Assembly: GCF_003334385.1 (NCBI RefSeq)
Contig: NZ_QOWN01000022.1
Source of the DNA: Escherichia coli
GTDB lineage: Bacteria > Pseudomonadota > Gammaproteobacteria > Enterobacterales > Enterobacteriaceae
Direction: 5' to 3' (one strand)
Length of the DNA: 64,000 nucleotides
Numbering within the stretch: position 1 is the stretch's first letter; every line of letters begins with the position of its first letter. The notes below the pieces were generated by a model. That model ran no database searches and was not told the DNA's origin. It was given only the letters and a program-made list of their open reading frames with translations. Position numbers and translations under genes: made by a program. Shown piece by piece: positions 45,354 to 53,660 of the stretch.

Positions 45354-46304
45354 TTAATCGTCTTCTTCGTCATCCAGTTCAACGGGTGTCTGATACTGGT
45401 CAGGTTTAATGACCAGCAGGTCGCAGCGAAGATGATCAATCACCTGTTCCGCCGTGTTGCCGAGGAATGCTGCTGAAATACCGGTGCGTCCTACCGTGCC
45501 CAGAACCACAATCCCCGCCTGTAAGTGCTCCGCCAAATCAGGAATCACCTCTTCTGGCAGACCTTTTTCTACGTGCGTCATGTTTTCATTAATGCCGAAT
45601 TTCTGCCGCAGGGCTTTCATTGCCAGCAAATGTTGCCCACGAATGGCATCGTTATAAACGCTCGGGTCAAATTCCGGCAGTTCAATCGCGATATTAATTG
45701 GCGTTACCGGATAAGCGCCAACCAGATGAACTTCGGTATGGTTGACTTGTTCTGCCAGTTCGATCGTCTCTTTGACCAGTTTTTCATTGAGCGCATTATG
45801 ATACGGCTCTTCACTGGCGAGATTCACCGCCACCAGCGCCTTGCCTCCTTCCGGCCACGGCTGGTCTTTCACCATCCACACCGGGCTTGGGCATTTGCGT
45901 AACAGATGCCAGTCCGTTGGCGTAAAAATCACCGCTTCCAGACGGTCATGTTGGTGCGCCATTTTTAGCACCAAATCGTGTCCGCCGCTGATCACTTCCT
46001 GAATGATGGCTTCGAAAGGACGGTTATGCCAGACCACTTTAATTTCAATGGGAACGCCAGCATTGAGATAATATTTTGCCTGCTCGTGGATCCAGGCTGT
46101 ACGCTGGCTGATGACGCCCTGACGCATAGCGGTACGTTCGTCCGGGGAGAGCAGGGTGGTCATTTCGTATGAGAAGTCATAGATCGGCAAAAAGGCTTTA
46201 ATTTTGCCACCAATCCGTTGATGTAAATAAACAGCTCGCCGCAATGCTGGTTGGTCGTCCTGGTTAGGATCGATAACAACGAGCATGTTCTGATACATAG
46301 CCAT
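45354..46304 (-). CDS. uspE: tandem-domain universal stress protein E
   Basis: Start set at [13 protein letters not shown] (316 aa). Confidence 0.9.
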
Positions 46305-46455
46305 ACAGGGTCTCCTTACAACAACTGTCAACGCAGTTTGTAATTAAAAGATTAACCCATATCTGGTGAATGAAACAGTGATGAACCTTCTGCCAGATCA
46401 ATAAATCAGAAAAATTTAATGATATGACAGAAGGATAGTGAGTTATGCGGAAAAA

Positions 46456-47208
46456 TCAGGCAACGTTACGCGTATGACCAGCAAGCTGGGCCAGCGCATC
46501 GTTATTTTCGATGGTGATGTATTTACCTTTGACTGCCAGCATGCCGCTTTTCTGGAAGCGACCCAGCAGACGGCTGATGGTTTCTACCGTCAGGCCCAGA
46601 TAGTTACCGATATCGCCACGAGTCATCGTCAGGCGGAATTCACGAGGGGAGAAGCCGCGTTGGGCAAAACGACGGGACAGGTTGTAGATGAATGCAGCCA
46701 GACGTTCCTCGGCATTTTTCTTCGACAACAGCAGGATCATGTCCTGATCGCCTTTGATTTCACCGCTCATCAGACGCATCATCTGCTGACGCAGATTCGG
46801 CATTTTACCGGACAAATCGTCCAGCGTTTCGAACGGGATTTCACATACCATCGAGGTTTCCAGCGCCTGCGCGAAGCTCGGGTGATGGCCGCTGCCGATG
46901 GCGTCAAATCCCACCAGGTCGCCTGCTAAATGGAAACCAGTGATTTGCTCGTCGCCTTGCTCAGTGATGGTATAACTTTTAATCGTACCGGAGCGGATGG
47001 CATAAAGCGATTTAAGTTCATCACCAGCCTTAAACAGCGTCTGGCCTTTCTGAATAGGCTTCTTCCGCTCAATGATATTATCAAGCTGATCAAGCTCATG
47101 TTCGTTGAGTGTGAACGGGATGCAAAGCTGGCTGATGCTGCAATCCTGGCAATGGATAGCACAACCGCCAGACTGAATGCGCCGTATAATTCGCTTTTCC
47201 GGGATCAT
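46456..47208 (-). CDS. fnr: anaerobic global regulator FNR (CRP family, Fe-S)
   Basis: Start set at [23 protein letters not shown] (250 aa). Confidence 0.95.
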
Positions 47209-47227
47209 AGGTCTGCTCAAGCCGTAA

Positions 47228-47241
47228 TTGATATTTGTCAA
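47228..47241. promoter_or_regulatory. FNR box in the fnr promoter (autoregulation)
   Basis: TTGATatttGTCAA, 20-33 bp upstream of the fnr ATG. Confidence 0.55.
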
Positions 47242-47330
47242 TTTTAACATCTTTTTAGGGAGCAAGTAAGTCTAAGCAAACCTTAACAGCAGAGAATTCC
47301 GATATTAGATGTAAATATATGTCTATCTAT

Positions 47331-47355
47331 TTGAAAACCCTTAAGTTGTTAAGGG
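47331..47355 (-). terminator. rho-independent terminator downstream of ogt
   Basis: cccttaa-gttg-ttaaggg hairpin followed on the minus strand by UUUU. Confidence 0.6.
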
Positions 47356-47402
47356 TAACTTTACATAAAAGTGTGAACAAGCTGGCACAAATTGTTTAAT
47401 GT

Positions 47403-47918
47403 TTACAGCAAAAGATAACCTTCATGGCGCAATAACCACTCTTTTCGCTGAACTCCGCCTGCATATCCGGTCATGGTGCCGTTTCGGCCAATAACCCGAT
47501 GGCAAGGTACGACGATGCTGATGGGATTCGATCCGTTTGCCGCACCAACGGCACGCGCCGCGCCAGGACGGCCCAATTGCTCAGCCAGTTGGCCGTAATG
47601 CATTACCTGCCCGCAGGGGATAGTGCGTAGTGTTTTCCAGACTTCGCGCTGAAATGGCGTCCCCCCCGTAGCAGTGGGAAGCGTATCAATAATGCTAAGA
47701 TTACCGGCAAAATATTCACGAAGCTTGTCGCTTAAACCGCCTGGATTGGTGGCAGAAATGCGCTCATAGCCTTCTTTGCGATAATGGATGTCCAGCAGCT
47801 GCACCATGCGTTCGCTGTACTCTTCCCATTCAACCGCCCGCAGGCGAAATTGCTCATCGCAAATCACCCACAGTGGACCCAGTGGCGTGGCAATTTTTTC
47901 TTCAAGTAATCTCAGCAT
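47403..47918 (-). CDS. ogt: O6-methylguanine-DNA methyltransferase
   Basis: 171 aa; active-site PCHRV. Confidence 0.92.
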
Positions 47919-47928
47919 CCGTTCTCTC

Positions 47929-49455
47929 TTAAGACAAACGTGGGTAAATACCCGGACCTATCGGCAGACCGACAAGATACCACGCCAGCAACATCAGCAG
48001 CCATACCACCAAAAAGATAAGTGGATAGGGCAAGACTAACGAATAGTAAGTACCCAGTTTCGCGTCTGGTTTGTAGCGTTGCAGGAATCCAAGAAACAGT
48101 GGAACAAAAGGAGATACCGGCGCTAAAGGCAATACGGATGAGTCGGCAATACGAAAGAGGATTTGCGCAAATGCCGGGTGAAAGCCAAGTAGCATAAACA
48201 TTGGTACGAAAATGGGGGCAAGAATCGACCAGATTGCGGAACCGCTGGCAATAAACATGCATAAGAAAGAGGAAAGCAACGCCAGACCGACAAACGCCGG
48301 GATGCCGCTAAGCCCTGAACTTTCCAGTATATCGGTCAGCCCCACGGCGATGAATTTCCCCATGTTGCTCCAGTTAAACATGGCGACAAATTGGGCGAGG
48401 GGAAAAACCATCACGATAAATCCCGCCATCTCTTTCATCGGTTCAATCATTAAATGCGGTAAATCCGCCTGACGTCGAATTGTGCGGGTAGCGATGCCAT
48501 AAGCCAGCGAGACAACAAAGAAAAAAAGAATGATCAGTGGCACGATACCTTTAATAAAGGGTGATGGCATCACGGTGTGATTAATCGGATCGCGCAATAT
48601 CCCGTTTTGCGGGATCACCATCAGCGCAATCGCAGCAATAAAAAGTAGCGATACGACACCTGCTATGCGTAAACCAAAACGCTGACTTTCGGTCAATGTC
48701 TGCAGTTTCTCATCGCTGTTTCCCTGCCATTGACCTAACCGTGGCTCGATGATTTTGTCGGTTATCAGGCCGCCAACAATCGTCAGTACGACTACGGAGC
48801 TGGCCATAAAATACCAGTTATCAATTACACTGACGTGCATTTGCGGATTGAACGCAGCTGCCGCTTCCGTGCTGATCCCCGACAGCAACACGTCGGTTGT
48901 GACAATCAGTAAATTAGCCGTAAAGCCGCAACCTACGCCTGCAATGGCAGCCAGTAAACCTGCAACTGGATGCCTGCCCACCGCCAGAAAAATCAGCGCA
49001 CCCATCGGTGGCATGATCACTAACGCCGCATCGGAAGAAATGTGGCTGAAAAAAGCAATAAACAGCACCATATAACTGGCGTAGCGGGCATTAACATGCG
49101 ATGCCATTTTAACCATTAGTGCTGGCAGTAAGCCGACGCGCTCCGCCAGACCGGCACCTAAAACCAGCGCCAGGATCGCACCAAGTGGAGCAAAACCGCT
49201 AAAGTTTTTAATAACATTGGGTAAAAACCAGTGTAATCCTTCCACACTGAGCAGGTTTTTCACCACGACCGGCGTACCATCGGTCGGGTTTTTCGCACTG
49301 ACGCCAAAGGCCGACAAAATTGCCGTCGTCACCATGAGTACGATAATCAAATAGATAAAGAGCAGAAAAGGATGGGGAACCTTGTTACCAATTCTTTCGA
49401 CCCAGCCATAGAGCTTCCCGGATTGGGAGGACGACGGTATGGATGACATACTCAT
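47929..49455 (-). CDS. abgT: p-aminobenzoyl-glutamate transporter (AbgT family)
   Basis: Start set at [11 protein letters not shown] (508 aa). Confidence 0.9.
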
Positions 49456-49491
49456 GGGCATTCCTCGGTTGTTGTGTTTGCGTTGTTGTTG

Positions 49492-50937
49492 TTATTTTAA
49501 AGGTGACGGTGTCACGTTTTTCGGGATAGGGCAGTGATACGGTTGCGTGTCCGTTACTTGCTGATGCTCTTGTTGGCATTCTTGCAATAGCCCTGAATCA
49601 AGGAAGAGATTGACTGTGGTTGCTGCCATAGTTTTCGCCGCCAGCAGCATTCCTTTATGAGCAATAGATGTTCGCCCCTGGCTAACCAGTTGCCACGTAT
49701 GTAGCGGTGTACCGACGGCAAAACAGGGGCTGAAACACTGGGCAACAGGCAGTTTCCAACTGACGTCGCCGACATCAGTCGATGCCGCAAGCACGTTATC
49801 GGTGGCGGCATATGGAGCGACTTCATTCGCCAGTACCGTTTCACGATGACGTAGTGCAAAAACCTTGCCGTTTTCGCCACCGGTTGCGGCGATATTATTC
49901 AGACTGTTTTGCCGATCGTTGGAGGTGAGCGTAGCCTGAATTTGTTTCGCAAAAGCCAGTTCTTCGGAGTTCCATTCCGGGGTACCAAAATGGGATAGGG
50001 CCTGGTACATGGCATTTTCTAAGGTGCGATTCGGGAGATAACTGGAACAGGCTTTGTCGAAGCGGCATTCAACCGTGGTTTCGGTCATCAATGCCGCACC
50101 TTCGGCGATTTTGGCGACCCGATCATAAATATGCTGCACGTCGGTCATTTCGGGGGCGCGGATAAGATAAAGCACTTCTGCCTGCGCCTGGACCACGTTG
50201 GGCGAGATCCCGCCGCTATTTGTGATGGCATAGTGTACGCGCGCTTTTTCAATAATATGTTCGTTGAGGAAGTTGGTGCCAGTGGTCATCAACGTTACGG
50301 CATCAAGGGCGCTGCGTCCCAAATGAGGGGAATTCGCGGCATGTGCTGCGATCCCTTTAAAGCGCCATGATGCCTGAATGTTTGCCAGCGTGCGGGTATT
50401 GAACATACCGGCAAAGGCTTCCGGGTGCCAGGTGAGTGCCGCATCCACATCATCAAATACCCCCTCGCGAACCATGAACGTTTTACCCGAGCCGCCTTCT
50501 TCGCCAGGACAACCATAAAAGCGCACCGTGCCGCCTTGCCCATATTGTTCCAGCCATTTCTTGACGGCTATTGCAGCGGCAAAGGCGGCGGTTCCCAGCA
50601 AATTGTGTCCGCAACCGTGACCATTTTCACCGGGCGTCACGGATGTAGGTTGCGCGCAACCTGCTTGCTGACTTAAACCTGCCAGGGCGTCATATTCTCC
50701 CAGCAGGGCGATAACCGGTTTGCCTTGACCAAACGAAGCAATAAAGGCATTTGGGATATTGCCTACGTTGCGGGTAACGGTGAAGCCTGCAGATTCCAGC
50801 GCCGAAGCCAGATGCTCCGCTGACCAGAACTCTTCAAAACGTGTTTCTGGATGATCCCAGATTTGATCGGCAATATCGGTATAACGTTGGCGATCGGCTT
50901 CAATCGCATCGTCGATAAAACGATAGATTTCCTGCAT
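49492..50937 (-). CDS. abgB: p-aminobenzoyl-glutamate hydrolase subunit B (M20 peptidase)
   Basis: 481 aa. Confidence 0.9.
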   Translation of the reverse strand: MQEIYRFIDDAIEADRQRYTDIADQIWDHPETRFEEFWSAEHLASALESAGFTVTRNVGNIPNAFIASFGQGKPVIALLGEYDALAGLSQQAGCAQPTSVTPGENGHGCGHNLLGTAAFAAAIAVKKWLEQYGQGGTVRFYGCPGEEGGSGKTFMVREGVFDDVDAALTWHPEAFAGMFNTRTLANIQASWRFKGIAAHAANSPHLGRSALDAVTLMTTGTNFLNEHIIEKARVHYAITNSGGISPNVVQAQAEVLYLIRAPEMTDVQHIYDRVAKIAEGAALMTETTVECRFDKACSSYLPNRTLENAMYQALSHFGTPEWNSEELAFAKQIQATLTSNDRQNSLNNIAATGGENGKVFALRHRETVLANEVAPYAATDNVLAASTDVGDVSWKLPVAQCFSPCFAVGTPLHTWQLVSQGRTSIAHKGMLLAAKTMAATTVNLFLDSGLLQECQQEHQQVTDTQPYHCPIPKNVTPSPLK

Positions 50938-52247
50938 CAGATACCTCGCGTCCAGGGAAAATTGAGCGCGGTGCGCGCCAGCGTTTCGACGGCAATAGCG
51001 AGAACCTGCTCGTCAAAATCGAATTTTTCGTTGTGATGACCTGCCGCCAGCTGTGTGCCAAACACCACGTAGGAGGCTTGCCCTTGATGTTGCTGCACGC
51101 GGGCCATCATTAATGTGGCATCTTCGGAACCCGCAGGCGCTTCAACACGTTCAATGGCCTGATTGACCCCCGCGACCTGAGCCGCCTGACTTTGCAACCA
51201 TGCGACCCATTGCGGCGAAGGAGAACTGGCGGTAGCTGCACCCATCAGACGAGTTTCAACGCCGACACCATACATGGTTGCTGCGCCCTGAATCGCTTGT
51301 TGTGCACGGTCAAAAACATATTGATTAATGACGTCGCTGGCCCCGCGTGTTTCCACTTTCAGCAACGCCGAGGCAGGAACAACGTTACGACCGCTTCCTG
51401 CCTGCATAACGCCCACGTTTACTCTGGAAGCTCCTTCGCTGTGCGGGGCGATTGCATGCAGTGCAAGAGTGGCTTGTGCTGCCGCCAACAAGGCATTGTG
51501 ACCGTCTTCTGGTTTTGCGCCTGCGTGAGCGGCGGTACCGGTGAAGTGCGCGTCAAATTTGGTGGTTGCCATAAAATTATCACTGCCGCACACCACGGTG
51601 CCCGCAGGTACGCCAGTGCCAATGTGCACGGCAGTAAAATAATCAACATCATCTACGACACCTGCATCGACCATCGCCCGCGCGCCACGCGTACCTTCCT
51701 CTGCAGGCTGAAAAATCAGTTTGATGACGCCATGTAGTCCGGACTCGAACTGTTTAAGGGTATGCGCCAGCCCAAGCCCAATGGCGGTATGTCCATCATG
51801 ACCACAGGCATGCATCATTCCGGCGTTACATGACGCAAAACCGTCGCGGTAGGGGCGATGGCTGACATCCTGCTCTTCACTGAGATCCAGCGCGTCCATA
51901 TCGACACGGAAAGCCATCACCGGACCGGGGCGACCGGTATCCAGGGTGGCGACGATACCAGTGAAACCACCTTCAAAAGCCGCAATCCATTGTGCTAGCG
52001 CACCCTGTTGACGAGCGCGCTCGAATTCGCGTTGTAGAGTGAATTCATCAGGTAATCCCATCCGGCTACTTTCATTAACTACTTCGCGACCCAGCGCCAG
52101 TGAATAGCCGAGCTGGTGCAATTCTTCCGCAACAAGGGTGGCAGTGCGGAATTCCACCCAGCCAGACTCTGCATAGTGATGAAAATCACGTCGCCAGTGC
52201 GATAATTTTGGGGCAAGCGAATTAACAAATTGATTCAAAGACTCCAT
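50937..52247 (-). CDS. abgA: p-aminobenzoyl-glutamate hydrolase subunit A (M20 peptidase)
   Basis: Start set at MESLNQFVNS (436 aa); 1-nt overlap with abgB. Confidence 0.9.
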   Translation of the reverse strand: MESLNQFVNSLAPKLSHWRRDFHHYAESGWVEFRTATLVAEELHQLGYSLALGREVVNESSRMGLPDEFTLQREFERARQQGALAQWIAAFEGGFTGIVATLDTGRPGPVMAFRVDMDALDLSEEQDVSHRPYRDGFASCNAGMMHACGHDGHTAIGLGLAHTLKQFESGLHGVIKLIFQPAEEGTRGARAMVDAGVVDDVDYFTAVHIGTGVPAGTVVCGSDNFMATTKFDAHFTGTAAHAGAKPEDGHNALLAAAQATLALHAIAPHSEGASRVNVGVMQAGSGRNVVPASALLKVETRGASDVINQYVFDRAQQAIQGAATMYGVGVETRLMGAATASSPSPQWVAWLQSQAAQVAGVNQAIERVEAPAGSEDATLMMARVQQHQGQASYVVFGTQLAAGHHNEKFDFDEQVLAIAVETLARTALNFPWTRGI

Positions 52248-52422
52248 AACCTTTCCCGTCATCAGTAAAAAGTGTGACCCGGTTCACGTAGCGATAGTTT
52301 TTACTTATCACTAACTGATTTTTCACAGTTTTAACCGTTCATAAATTACCCTGACACAATCATCTGCATTAAAGTAGATGCCAGTTTCTTTGGTCTGATA
52401 AATAACGGTTATCGGTGGCGTC

Positions 52423-53331
52423 ATGGCTTTTCAGGTAAAAATTCATCAAATTCGGGCTTTTGTTGAAGTGGCTCGTCAGGGCAGCATTCGCGGAGCGAGC
52501 CGAATGTTGAATATGTCGCAACCGGCACTGAGTAAATCTATTCAGGAGCTAGAAGAAGGGTTAGCGGCGCAACTCTTTTTTCGCCGTAGTAAAGGCGTGA
52601 CGTTAACTGATGCCGGTGAAAGTTTTTATCAGCACGCCAGTCTAATTCTTGAAGAGCTGCGCGCAGCCCAAGAGGATATTCGCCAACGACAAGGGCAACT
52701 GGCAGGGCAGATTAATATCGGCATGGGGGCCAGTATTTCCCGCAGTCTGATGCCAGCTGTCATATCTCGTTTTCATCAGCAGCATCCGCAGGTAAAAGTA
52801 CGCATTATGGAAGGGCAACTGGTGTCGATGATTAATGAATTGCGTCAGGGAGAATTGGATTTCACCATCAATACCTATTATCAGGGACCGTACGACCACG
52901 AATTTACTTTTGAGAAATTACTGGAAAAGCAATTCGCGATCTTTTGCCGCCCGGGACACCCCGCCATTGGTGCCCGTTCGATCAAACAGTTACTGGATTA
53001 CAGCTGGACAATGCCGACGCCACACGGCAGCTACTACAAACAGTTGAGTGAATTGCTTGACGATCAGGCGCAAACGCCACAGGTCGGTGTAGTCTGCGAG
53101 ACGTTCTCAGCCTGTATCAGTCTGGTGGCAAAAAGCGATTTTCTCAGCATACTGCCTGAAGAAATGGGCTGCGATCCCTTGCACGGACAGGAGCTGGTGA
53201 TGTTGCCGGTTAGCGAAATTTTACCGAAAGCGGCCTATTATTTGATTCAGCGGCGTGATAGTCGCCAGACACCACTGACCGCGTCATTAATCACGCAATT
53301 CCGGCGAGAATGCGGCTATCTGCAAAGTTAA
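52423..53331 (+). CDS. abgR: LysR-type regulator of the abg operon
   Basis: 302 aa, divergent from abgA. Confidence 0.9.
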   Translation: MAFQVKIHQIRAFVEVARQGSIRGASRMLNMSQPALSKSIQELEEGLAAQLFFRRSKGVTLTDAGESFYQHASLILEELRAAQEDIRQRQGQLAGQINIGMGASISRSLMPAVISRFHQQHPQVKVRIMEGQLVSMINELRQGELDFTINTYYQGPYDHEFTFEKLLEKQFAIFCRPGHPAIGARSIKQLLDYSWTMPTPHGSYYKQLSELLDDQAQTPQVGVVCETFSACISLVAKSDFLSILPEEMGCDPLHGQELVMLPVSEILPKAAYYLIQRRDSRQTPLTASLITQFRRECGYLQS

Positions 53332-53338
53332 AACTGCA

Positions 53339-53433
53339 TAAAAAAATAGAGTCTGTCGACATCCGCCAGACTCTACAGTACACACAGCAGTGCATCCGCG
53401 TCTTAAATCCGGCATTGTCTCCTCTGCGCCGGT
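53339..53433 (-). ncRNA. mcaS: small regulatory RNA McaS (IsrA)
   Basis: Reverse complement reads ACCGGCGCAGAGGAGACAATGCCGGATTTAAGACGCGG...GTCGACAGACTCTATTTTTTT, matching the McaS sequence as I recall it; ends in a terminator hairpin plus U-run. Confidence 0.75.
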
Positions 53434-53660
53434 GACTGTGTTATAACGGTTTTAACCTTTAGTTGCCAATTTTCTTCAGTGACAGATTTCACGAAAATAT
53501 AAGTTACATTATTAATATCGTGAATGAATAATCATGCATAAGTATTTTGCTTAAAATATCGGCAATATTTGGAACTTATTACTGGAAATTTGGGTAATAC
53601 GTTGTTGGACCGACCCGGTCTGGTTATCATATCGCGCTCTTAATTGCGGGAGGATGTAAC

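Follow-up and report, generated by a model that had tools for sequence, protein, structure and literature searches.

In Escherichia coli, the DNA-repair gene ogt begins directly behind abgT, the last gene of an operon for the use of p-aminobenzoyl-glutamate. This raises the question of whether ogt is expressed as a part of that operon, or forms a transcription unit of its own. The locus was analysed in a window of 64 kb (the whole stretch of DNA under study), which carries the gene order abgR / abgA-abgB-abgT-ogt-fnr of the E. coli K-12 type (Table 1). The product of abgT showed near full-length similarity to structurally characterised members of the AbgT family, with alignments reaching the C-terminus (MtrF, PDB 4R1I, E = 2e-109, query residues 9-503; YdaH, PDB 4R0C, E = 5e-90), which places it within this family. 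An earlier note on this DNA had extended abgT upstream to 49461; this position is an in-frame ATG lying farther upstream than the start given by RefSeq, 49455. The translation of ogt is identical to WP_000945011.1 (methylated-DNA--[protein]-cysteine S-methyltransferase), and the same protein is found in strains of the K-12 type and in strains from which abg has been deleted. The abgA and abgB genes overlap by 1 nt, and a gap of 36 nt separates abgB from abgT. An Rfam scan of the whole window matched only McaS, FnrS and RalA, all of them elsewhere, and gave no match within abgT-ogt-fnr.

Table 1. Features of the abg-ogt-fnr region, with positions in the 64-kb window.
Feature	Position	Strand	Description and basis
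abgA	52247-50937	minus	Among the first genes of the abg operon; RefSeq annotation mapped from an identical genome
abgB	50937-49492	minus	RefSeq annotation mapped from an identical genome
abgT	49455->47929	minus	p-Aminobenzoyl-glutamate transporter, 508 aa; TAA at 47931-47929; ORF list and RefSeq annotation, identical genome
Breakpoint of natural abgR-abgABT deletion	48078-48074	minus	Window aligned with ATCC 11775 and strain E24
NarL I 7-2-7 site, TACTTACtaTTCGTTA	48052-48037	minus	Centred at -77.5; bases placed by arithmetic from published position and TSS
NarL II 7-2-7 site, TATCTTTttGGTGGTA	48019-48004	minus	Centred at -44.5, abgT codons 479-484; published position and mapped TSS
Extended -10 and -10, TGgTATCTT	47982-47974	minus	abgT codons W492-Y493-L494; hexamer TATCTT from Ruanto et al. 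2020
ogt TSS (+1)	47967	minus	Within abgT, 36 nt ahead of the stop codon; Kim et al. 2012 sequence matched to the window
abgT-ogt spacer, gagagaacgg	47928-47919	minus	10 nt; direct sequence reading
ogt	47918->47403	minus	O6-alkylguanine-DNA alkyltransferase, 171 aa; PCHRV active-site motif; ORF list and RefSeq
Hairpin ACCCTTAAcaacTTAAGGGT followed by TTTC	47356-47333	minus	47 nt past the ogt stop; the 'terminator' of the earlier note, weak, E. coli-specific
FNR-consensus site, TTGACaaatATCAA	47241-47228	minus	Centred at -0.5 of the fnr TSS; read from sequence

The junction between the two genes is as tight as the earlier note had described, with exactly 10 nt between the abgT stop codon and the ogt ATG (47918-47916), and both genes on the minus strand. 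A purine-rich, Shine-Dalgarno-like sequence, AAGAGAG (47930-47924), overlaps the abgT stop. The same arrangement, a gap of 9-12 nt with a TAAGGA/TAAAGGA Shine-Dalgarno sequence right after the abgT stop, was found in 19 other species from at least 8 genera. A terminator scan called no intrinsic terminator in the abgT-ogt interval, and the genes show two of the features expected of an abgABT-ogt operon, namely a common strand with a spacer shorter than about 30 nt, and no intrinsic terminator between them. The junction folded no better than shuffled sequence (z = -0.46), and no conserved RNA structure was detected at this place among 20 tight-junction species. The idea that the ogt 5' UTR folds into a structure for coupling or attenuation was considered and rejected, as the weak hairpin of E. 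coli was no better than shuffles and was not conserved in the 20 species. In this hairpin, seen in E. coli alone, the last abgT codons pair with the ogt Shine-Dalgarno sequence and AUG.

The ogt gene has a documented promoter, and this promoter lies inside abgT. Kim et al. 2012 (Table S1) map the TSS of ogt to NC_000913 1398309(-), 49 nt of UTR upstream of the gene, and list a promoter sequence that ends ...GGTATCTTGTCGGTC; this start corresponds to position 47967 of the window, where the flanking sequence matches. This position agrees with the -10 numbering of Ruanto et al. 2020 (PMC7419079), where the -10 hexamer is TATCTT and the mutation p11C alters its A; the element TGgTATCTT also stands at the right distance from the mapped start. 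In the window p11C corresponds to A to C at 47978, a change that is not silent in abgT, as codon Y493 goes from TAT to TCT (Ser). According to the published work, in which NarL-dependent activation is analysed in detail, the promoter is activated by NarL under nitrate and repressed by Fis, its NarL 7-2-7 sites are centred at -44.5 and -77.5, with the former 32 bp upstream of the -10 element, and the Fis site overlaps NarL I. The rationale put forward there for induction by nitrate is a prophylactic repair of alkylation damage caused by reactive nitrogen species while the cell respires nitrate. The mapping of start sites within the 3' end of abgT, proposed in the earlier note as a check, is thus already in print. 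That note had also allowed for any ogt-proximal promoter, in addition to read-through from abgABT; such a promoter does exist, and was given too little weight, being on the published record the chief source of ogt expression. It was reportedly also the subject of a study by Squire et al. 2009 (Biochem J 420:249), made in E. coli K-12. Gene order, the internal NarL-dependent promoter and the mapped start of ogt are therefore all published knowledge.

The placement of the two NarL sites rests on the literature and on arithmetic, as the sequence alone cannot recognise them. A 7-2-7-like sequence is present at both positions, with 4 mismatches each, which is indistinguishable from chance in silico. 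When the window was scanned with the NarL consensus TACYYMTNNAKRRGTA at up to 3 mismatches, 34 matches were obtained against 29 expected, and both ogt sites were missed, so that the scan is uninformative. NarL II is conserved in Enterobacter and its relatives, in the form TATCTTTTTAGGGGTA. A NarL-like site near smrA (53529-53544) was considered as a relative of NarL II and was set aside, since part of it is missing from Escherichia sp. MOD1 and nothing equivalent occurs in other genera.

A deletion that removes abgABT, with one and the same junction, occurs in 1172 of 5426 complete E. coli genomes (~22%). These genomes keep ~148 nt of the abgT 3' end together with an intact ogt, and the DNA retained past the breakpoint includes the ogt promoter from about -109 to +1. 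Remnants of abgR and AbgT appear in the annotation. The abg-deleted strains are of the B2 type, and some of them carry a 12-bp deletion in the promoter. Among 80 other enterobacterial species, ogt is followed by fnr on the same strand in all 80. Upstream of ogt, 54 of these species have no abgT, 19 have a full abgT at a gap of 9-12 nt, 5 have it at 179-749 nt and 2 have remnants; the wider separation is that of Klebsiella and Raoultella, in which another small ORF stands between the two genes. By co-inheritance and adjacency, over the 80 other species and the 5426 E. coli genomes, abgT and ogt thus fail to behave as an operon. As ogt and its promoter persist where abgABT has been lost, the two genes do not form the odd functional pairing that the earlier note had seen in them; abg is dispensable for ogt, and it is fnr that stands beside ogt in every one of the 80 species. 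We therefore consider it probable that ogt is primarily its own transcription unit, with read-through from abg in a secondary role, and that its juxtaposition with abgT is historical rather than functional.

The position of the promoter within a coding sequence appears to have left a mark on abgT. Where ogt abuts abgT, the synonymous diversity of codons 479-495 was 0.256 versus a gene mean of 0.403, the third lowest of 488 windows of codons, whereas in species where ogt is separated it was 0.387, above the gene mean of 0.291, a contrast between two clades (19 versus 5 species) that is not phylogenetically independent. At the synonymous positions, 18 of the 19 species with a tight junction, E. 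coli among them, show no change in the hexamer TATCTT (TAT 19/19, CTT 18/19), as compared with TAT in 2/5 and CTT in 0/5 of the separated species. With a profile of the abgT tail, matches at the syntenic place ahead of ogt were obtained for 13 of the 54 abg-less species and for 0 of 20 shuffled sets, and AbgT peptides, e.g. LLIFLGVWL and LAWY..SLPI, are recognisable there. The C-terminus of AbgT is kept in MtrF and YdaH, suggesting that the coding function of this end of abgT is older than the promoter. A gain of the abg cassette, rather than its loss, is less likely, in view of the AbgT-like remnants in abg-less species and the ancient AbgT C-terminus. On balance, we favour, with some reserve, a dual-use reading, in which the ogt promoter was born within codons for the final transmembrane helix of AbgT. 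The promoter would freeze the synonymous sites beneath it (TAT-CTT at Y493-L494; ATC-TTT-TTA-GGG-GTA over NarL II) as long as ogt abuts abgT, and, after several independent losses of abgR-abgABT, it would remain as a noncoding abgT fossil that still drives ogt.

Downstream of ogt, the earlier note had recognised the only convincing terminator of the region, at 47331-47355. The structure is a perfect 8-bp hairpin, ACCCTTAA-caac-TTAAGGGT, at 47356-47337, followed by the tail TTTC at 47336-47333. Only 3 of its 8 pairs are G-C, its dG is -8.6 kcal/mol, and it is more stable than shuffled sequence (z = -2.5). An intrinsic terminator was taken as a G+C-rich stem with a U-run directly after it, at least 5 U in 8, and the scan did not call this hairpin, the tail UUUCAAAU failing on the T-run. 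Escherichia sp. MOD1 has a shorter form of the hairpin, and neither E. albertii nor any of the other genera examined has it at all. It is thus far from convincing, and is possibly a weak terminator instead. One may also suppose that it is no terminator at all, that ogt transcripts end elsewhere or run into fnr, and that the transcriptional neighbourhood conserved in evolution links ogt to fnr and not to abgT. The weakness and narrow distribution of the hairpin speak for this, as do the invariable adjacency of ogt and fnr on one strand and the spacer of 166-226 nt between them, which lacks a canonical terminator in most species. In addition, the 3' arm of the hairpin with its T-run, TTAAGGGTTTTCAA, is located at -103.5 relative to the start of fnr transcription, where an upstream FNR site has reportedly been described. 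However, fnr has its own mapped start (1397576, window 47234), which marks a separate fnr promoter downstream of ogt and carries an FNR site at -0.5, and the hairpin does surpass its shuffled versions and is followed by U4. We regard an ogt-fnr neighbourhood of this kind as possible, but rather unlikely.

Judging from the sequence, read-through from abgABT into ogt is plausible whenever the abg operon is on, because the genes lie on one strand at a gap of 10 nt with no terminator between them. EcoCyc and RegulonDB presumably list an abgABT-ogt transcription unit. In those supplements of long-read, Term-seq and operon studies that we searched, we found no entry for ogt or abgT. The abgABT genes are reported to be CRP-activated and to be 24/41/26-fold RpoS-dependent, and an asterisk set on them in the RpoS table means that another gene of the known operon failed the criteria. 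This asterisk may be a sign that ogt departs from the behaviour of abgABT, in which case read-through would add little ogt mRNA, or would be blocked. A block, by NarL/Fis roadblocks, by Rho or by RNA processing, would insulate ogt from abg transcription and leave its own promoter as the sole source. The NarL I, NarL II and Fis sites do stand in the path of read-through, and ogt is unreported as RpoS-dependent while abgABT shift 24-41-fold. Nevertheless, such insulation seems improbable, as there is no intrinsic terminator, activator sites seldom fully block an elongating polymerase, and the translation of abgT to within 10 nt of ogt should leave no untranslated stretch for the loading of Rho. 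Least credible of all is that abgABT-ogt is a functional operon to which ogt truly belongs as fourth gene, its co-expression with the uptake and cleavage of folate catabolites having been selected and its tight junction serving transcriptional and translational coupling: this would suit the 9-12-nt spacer with its Shine-Dalgarno sequence, which E. coli shares with 19 other species from at least 8 genera, the junction devoid of a terminator or conserved structure, and a published RpoS table that takes the known operon as larger than abgABT, but ogt, its promoter and fnr remain in the 54 of 80 species and ~22% of E. coli without abgABT upstream, the genes lie 179-749 nt apart around a small ORF in Klebsiella and Raoultella, ogt is apparently not co-listed with abgABT as RpoS-dependent, and we know of no biochemical link between the use of p-aminobenzoyl-glutamate and O6-alkylguanine repair.

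The reading that we prefer, ogt as mainly a transcription unit of its own, can be set out as follows. An activator-dependent sigma-70 promoter, with the extended -10 element TGgTATCTT, a poor -35, tandem NarL sites and Fis over the upstream NarL site, is confined to the final ~120 nt of coding sequence in abgT. Transcription from it starts at 47967 and is turned on by nitrate via NarX/NarL. The junction, with its 10-nt spacer and neither hairpin nor U-tract, would be expected to halt neither RNA polymerase nor ribosomes, and translation of abgT would reach almost to the ogt Shine-Dalgarno sequence. Transcripts from the abgA promoter, whose operon is reported to depend on RpoS and CRP and to be otherwise poorly expressed, would then enter ogt as a secondary, condition-specific input. 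The overlay of the promoter on the sequence that codes for the final transmembrane helix of AbgT probably dates from an ancestor of the Enterobacteriaceae. The promoter may now constrain the synonymous sites of abgT, and each independent loss of abgR-abgABT may have left a promoter-bearing abgT stub.

Several known systems resemble this one. The abgABT operon with its divergent abgR was reportedly described by Hussein et al. 1998 and Carter et al. 2007, and the window shows the same order and orientation, abgR / abgA-abgB-abgT, in which neighbouring genes overlap or lie close together; this gene order also occurs in K. pneumoniae (KPN_01530-01535). The difference is that ogt has no part in p-aminobenzoyl-glutamate function and survives the loss of the cassette. 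The major rpoS promoter sits inside nlpD, a comparable case of a downstream gene with its promoter in the 3' part of an unrelated gene of the same strand, with no terminator in between and two classes of transcript. In contrast to that case, the upstream gene abgT is accessory and often deleted, and the promoter then survives as a noncoding relic. The E. coli K-12 ogt promoter is the same DNA, with an element identical to that found here, and Ruanto et al. 2020 (PMC7419079) also describe a variant of pathogenic strains with a deletion of ~10 bp and Salmonella promoters without NarL I, both of which we observed independently. The parts of the ogt promoter literature consulted lay no stress on the overlap of the promoter with the coding sequence of abgT, or on the origin of free-standing ogt promoters in other species as remnants of that gene.

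These findings have little consequence for the biology of E. coli, since the arrangement is already known, and an additional input to ogt from transcripts of the abg promoter, in stationary phase or through CRP, would be a small regulatory detail. The locus has a modest didactic value, as an example of a promoter in a coding sequence that leaves a synonymous footprint and outlives its host gene. If the dual-use reading is true, a promoter concealed within the lost gene determined where the breakpoints of the loss fell, and Klebsiella and Raoultella would carry an intact abgT with a drifted tail, as well as a separate fossil tail beside ogt. For annotation there is a warning: roughly one in five E. 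coli genomes carries, ahead of ogt, a stub labelled 'hypothetical protein' or 'AbgT family transporter, partial' that is in fact functional promoter DNA.

The locus in the window is of the E. coli K-12 type. A 2.4-kb query spanning the abgT-ogt region matched 5405 of 5426 complete E. coli genomes, many of them with 100% identity. The RefSeq annotation of an identical genome places abgR on one strand and abgA, abgB, abgT, ogt, fnr and uspE, in this order, on the other. The earlier note had claimed that ogt starts 10 bp after the abgT stop on the same strand, and the coordinates (47929 to 47918) confirmed this, the spacer gagagaacgg being exactly 10 nt. The abgT boundary used there, 49461, is an upstream in-frame ATG and differs from the annotated start. 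The tight junction is old: 19 other species (in Enterobacter, Lelliottia, Silvania, Pluralibacter, Buttiauxella, Franconibacter and others) have a full-length abgT whose stop carries TAAGGA or TAAAGGA and lies 9-12 nt ahead of ogt.

Features of the abg-ogt-fnr locus and other elements in the window
Feature	Position	Strand	Basis or remark
abgA	52247-50937	minus	RefSeq annotation, identical genome
abgB	50937-49492	minus	RefSeq annotation, identical genome
abgT	49455-47929	minus	RefSeq annotation, identical genome
ogt	47918-47403	minus	RefSeq annotation, identical genome
fnr	47208-46456	minus	RefSeq annotation, identical genome
abgT stop TAA	47931-47929	minus	sequence
ogt ATG	47918-47916	minus	sequence
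NarL I, TACTTACtaTTCGTTA	48052-48037	minus	placed from start site 47967; identity from literature
NarL II, TATCTTTttGGTGGTA	48019-48004	minus	placed from start site 47967; identity from literature
TGgTATCTT (extended -10 and -10)	47982-47974	minus	placed from start site 47967
ogt start site	47967	minus	end of Kim et al. 2012 promoter string; 36 nt before abgT stop codon
Post-ogt hairpin, ACCCTTAA-caac-TTAAGGGT (TTTC follows the hairpin)	47356-47337	minus	sequence and fold; perfect 8 bp
Weak FNR-like sequence TTAAGggttTTCAA	47331-47344		centred -103.5 of fnr start site
FNR-consensus site TTGACaaatATCAA	47228-47241		fnr promoter; centred -0.5 of mapped fnr start 47234
McaS/IsrA sRNA gene	53338-53433	minus	Rfam
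FnrS sRNA gene	56811-56928	plus	Rfam
RalA sRNA gene	61238-61416	plus	Rfam; antitoxin RNA of Rac prophage, consistent with a K-12-like genome
Gap small ORF (Klebsiella/Raoultella)	L028:3571-3690, L033:3407-3535; also L038, L044	minus (L028, L033)	39-42 aa, MQYM(M/L)TG..., hydrophobic

The only convincing terminator had been said to follow ogt. A consensus terminator scan of 46300-53400 found none between abgT and ogt, the 101 nt around the junction folded no better than shuffles (z = -0.46), and a 20-species alignment of the junction showed no conserved structure. Terminator-like sites in 46300-53400 numbered 9, against 8.9 expected from shuffled sequence. The post-ogt hairpin has 3 G-C pairs (dG -8.6 kcal/mol, z = -2.5) and fails the T-run rule of the scan. 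It is confined to E. coli: Escherichia sp. MOD1 has a shortened form, and E. albertii and all other genera compared lack it, the 166-226-nt ogt-fnr spacer of most of these containing no canonical terminator. In view of these null results and the weak, E. coli-only hairpin, the absence of a terminator before ogt stands, whereas the strength of the one after it was overstated. TTAAGggttTTCAA coincides in part with the hairpin's 3' arm and T-run, so that the two functions may share DNA; an upstream FNR site has been described at -103.5 of the fnr start.

Read-through from abgABT into ogt is plausible from the arrangement of the genes (same strand, short terminator-free spacer), and abgT translation, reaching to within 10 nt of ogt, would leave no naked RNA for Rho. 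The published transcript data searched contained no evidence for or against such read-through. An indirect hint speaks against it: in E. coli O157, abgA, abgB and abgT are 24-, 41- and 26-fold RpoS-dependent, and an asterisk on the abg entry of that RpoS table denotes that another "known operon" gene, presumably ogt, failed the criteria. The asterisk suggests that a larger abgABT-ogt unit is already in databases and that ogt mRNA does not simply track abgABT. EcoCyc and RegulonDB probably list such a unit, which would agree with the first of these suggestions. abgABT is also reported to be CRP-activated. In one strain, E. coli PigCaeca_1 (NZ_CP039298.1), abgT is interrupted by IS1 ahead of ogt, another natural disruption of any read-through. 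The contribution of read-through to ogt is probably secondary, and the interpretation in the earlier note, partly right, misses a documented ogt promoter within abgT and the historical, accidental nature of the pairing.

According to Ruanto et al. 2020 (PMC7419079), nitrate induces the E. coli K-12 ogt promoter via NarL; the promoter has NarL 7-2-7 sites centred at -44.5 and -77.5, a Fis site overlapping the upstream one, and an extended -10 whose hexamer, TATCTT, has its second base at position -11. They argue for a prophylactic role of the induction, against alkylation by reactive nitrogen species in nitrate metabolism. Kim et al. 2012 (PMC3415461, Table S1) give an experimentally derived ogt start site (NC_000913 1398309(-), 49-nt 5' UTR) and the promoter sequence TCTTTTTGGTGGTATGGCTGCTGATGTTGCTGGCGTGGTATCTTGTCGGTC, which ends at window 47967. 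The NarL sites placed from this position are spaced as reported ("32 and 65 bp upstream of the -10"), and all these promoter elements lie within abgT codons 469-495. As the published start falls before the abgT stop, the start-site mapping inside the abgT 3' end that had been proposed as a check was already available. A NarL consensus scan gave 34 matches against 29 expected and missed both real ogt sites; these are not recognisable from sequence alone, and their identity rests on the literature. For abgA, the table of Kim et al. 2012 (PMC3415461) gives a start site that is weak (3 reads), at ~52869 (NC_000913 1403211, minus strand, 622-nt 5' UTR), which would fall inside divergent abgR, and no proximal abgA promoter. 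Elsewhere, a near-consensus NarL/NarP-like 7-2-7 sequence, TAATCATGCATAAGTA (53529-53544, 1 mismatch; 0.07 such expected per window), lies between the McaS gene and smrA (start 53661, plus). Escherichia sp. MOD1 (L004) has lost part of this sequence, and none was seen in the other genera compared.

The promoter has left a footprint in abgT codons. In the 19 tight-junction species, including E. coli, synonymous-codon diversity over codons 479-495 (NarL II to -10) was 0.256, compared with a mean of 0.403 for the gene, and ranked third lowest among 488 windows; with ogt separated (five species) it exceeded the gene mean, at 0.387 against 0.291 (rank 453 of 492), the two groups being clades and not independent samples. 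Y493 TAT was used in 19/19 and 2/5 species, respectively, L494 CTT in 18/19 and 0/5, I480 ATC in 18/19 and 0/5, and V484 GTA in 16/19 and 0/5. The five separated species carry a free-standing promoter copy beside ogt (for example Raoultella, TTATCTTTCAGGAGTATAG...GTGATATCTTGTC). Also conserved, within the abgT-ogt gap of Klebsiella oxytoca, K. michiganensis, K. grimontii and Raoultella, is a small opposite-strand ORF, probably encoding a small membrane protein, for which an NCBIfam match was not found.

A deletion found in 1172 of the 5426 complete E. coli genomes, ATCC 11775 (the type strain) and E24 among them, has taken out abgA and abgB entirely, the greater part of abgR, and abgT except its last ~148 nt; the breakpoint lies at ~48076, roughly -109 of the ogt promoter. 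These genomes keep the UTR, the -10 and both NarL sites and encode an identical Ogt protein (WP_000945011.1), and the stub is annotated "hypothetical protein" or "AbgT family transporter, partial". ATCC 11775 has a 12-bp deletion (L002:5075-5090, window ~48030-48019) by which NarL I comes nearer by about one helical turn and the first base of NarL II is altered; E24 shares the abg deletion but not the 12-bp one. A variant of this kind, with ~10 bp deleted, is mentioned for pathogenic strains by Ruanto et al. 2020 (PMC7419079). In 80 other species, retrieved by way of Ogt, fnr was next after ogt on the same strand in all 80; abgT was absent upstream in 54, only a stub of it was left in E. albertii and Escherichia sp. 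MOD1, and it was separated from ogt by 179-749 nt in the five Klebsiella/Raoultella species. Because divergent smrA stands 160-1100 nt upstream of ogt in most abg-less species, the abgR-abgABT cassette is either there or missing as a block. Breakpoints relative to the ogt ATG differ (E. coli B2-type ~-159, E. albertii ~-140, Escherichia sp. MOD1 ~-106, Salmonella ~-83), which indicates independent losses; at least NarL II and the -10 were kept in each. These natural losses, with ogt retained, argue that the pairing, earlier called functionally odd, is not a functional one.

An abgT-tail profile gave syntenic matches upstream of ogt in 13 of the 54 abg-less species (E < 0.01) and in 0 of 20 shuffled sets, although in older relics NarL binding and the -10 alone would preserve part of this similarity. 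Translated relics, set beside the corresponding 25-residue AbgT stretch, read LLIFLGVWL...YLIWL in Cedecea, LLFLGVW...YLSGRWGLPARG in Enterobacter sp. R1(2018) (L056) and LAWYRGSLPI in Enterobacteriaceae RIT691 (L021). The promoter relic of C. amalonaticus and Salmonella, both abg-less, has the McaS terminator directly upstream of it. Conservation of the AbgT C-terminus extends to Neisseria MtrF and Alcanivorax YdaH, so its coding function predates the promoter. As Ruanto et al. 2020 (PMC7419079) already noted variant ogt promoters in pathogenic E. coli and Salmonella, novelty may be limited to the framing as an abgT fossil; everything central was already known. Apart from terminator strength, the original observation is real; the abgT-ogt pairing is a historical accident. 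The ogt promoter marks synonymous codons of abgT and outlasts it.
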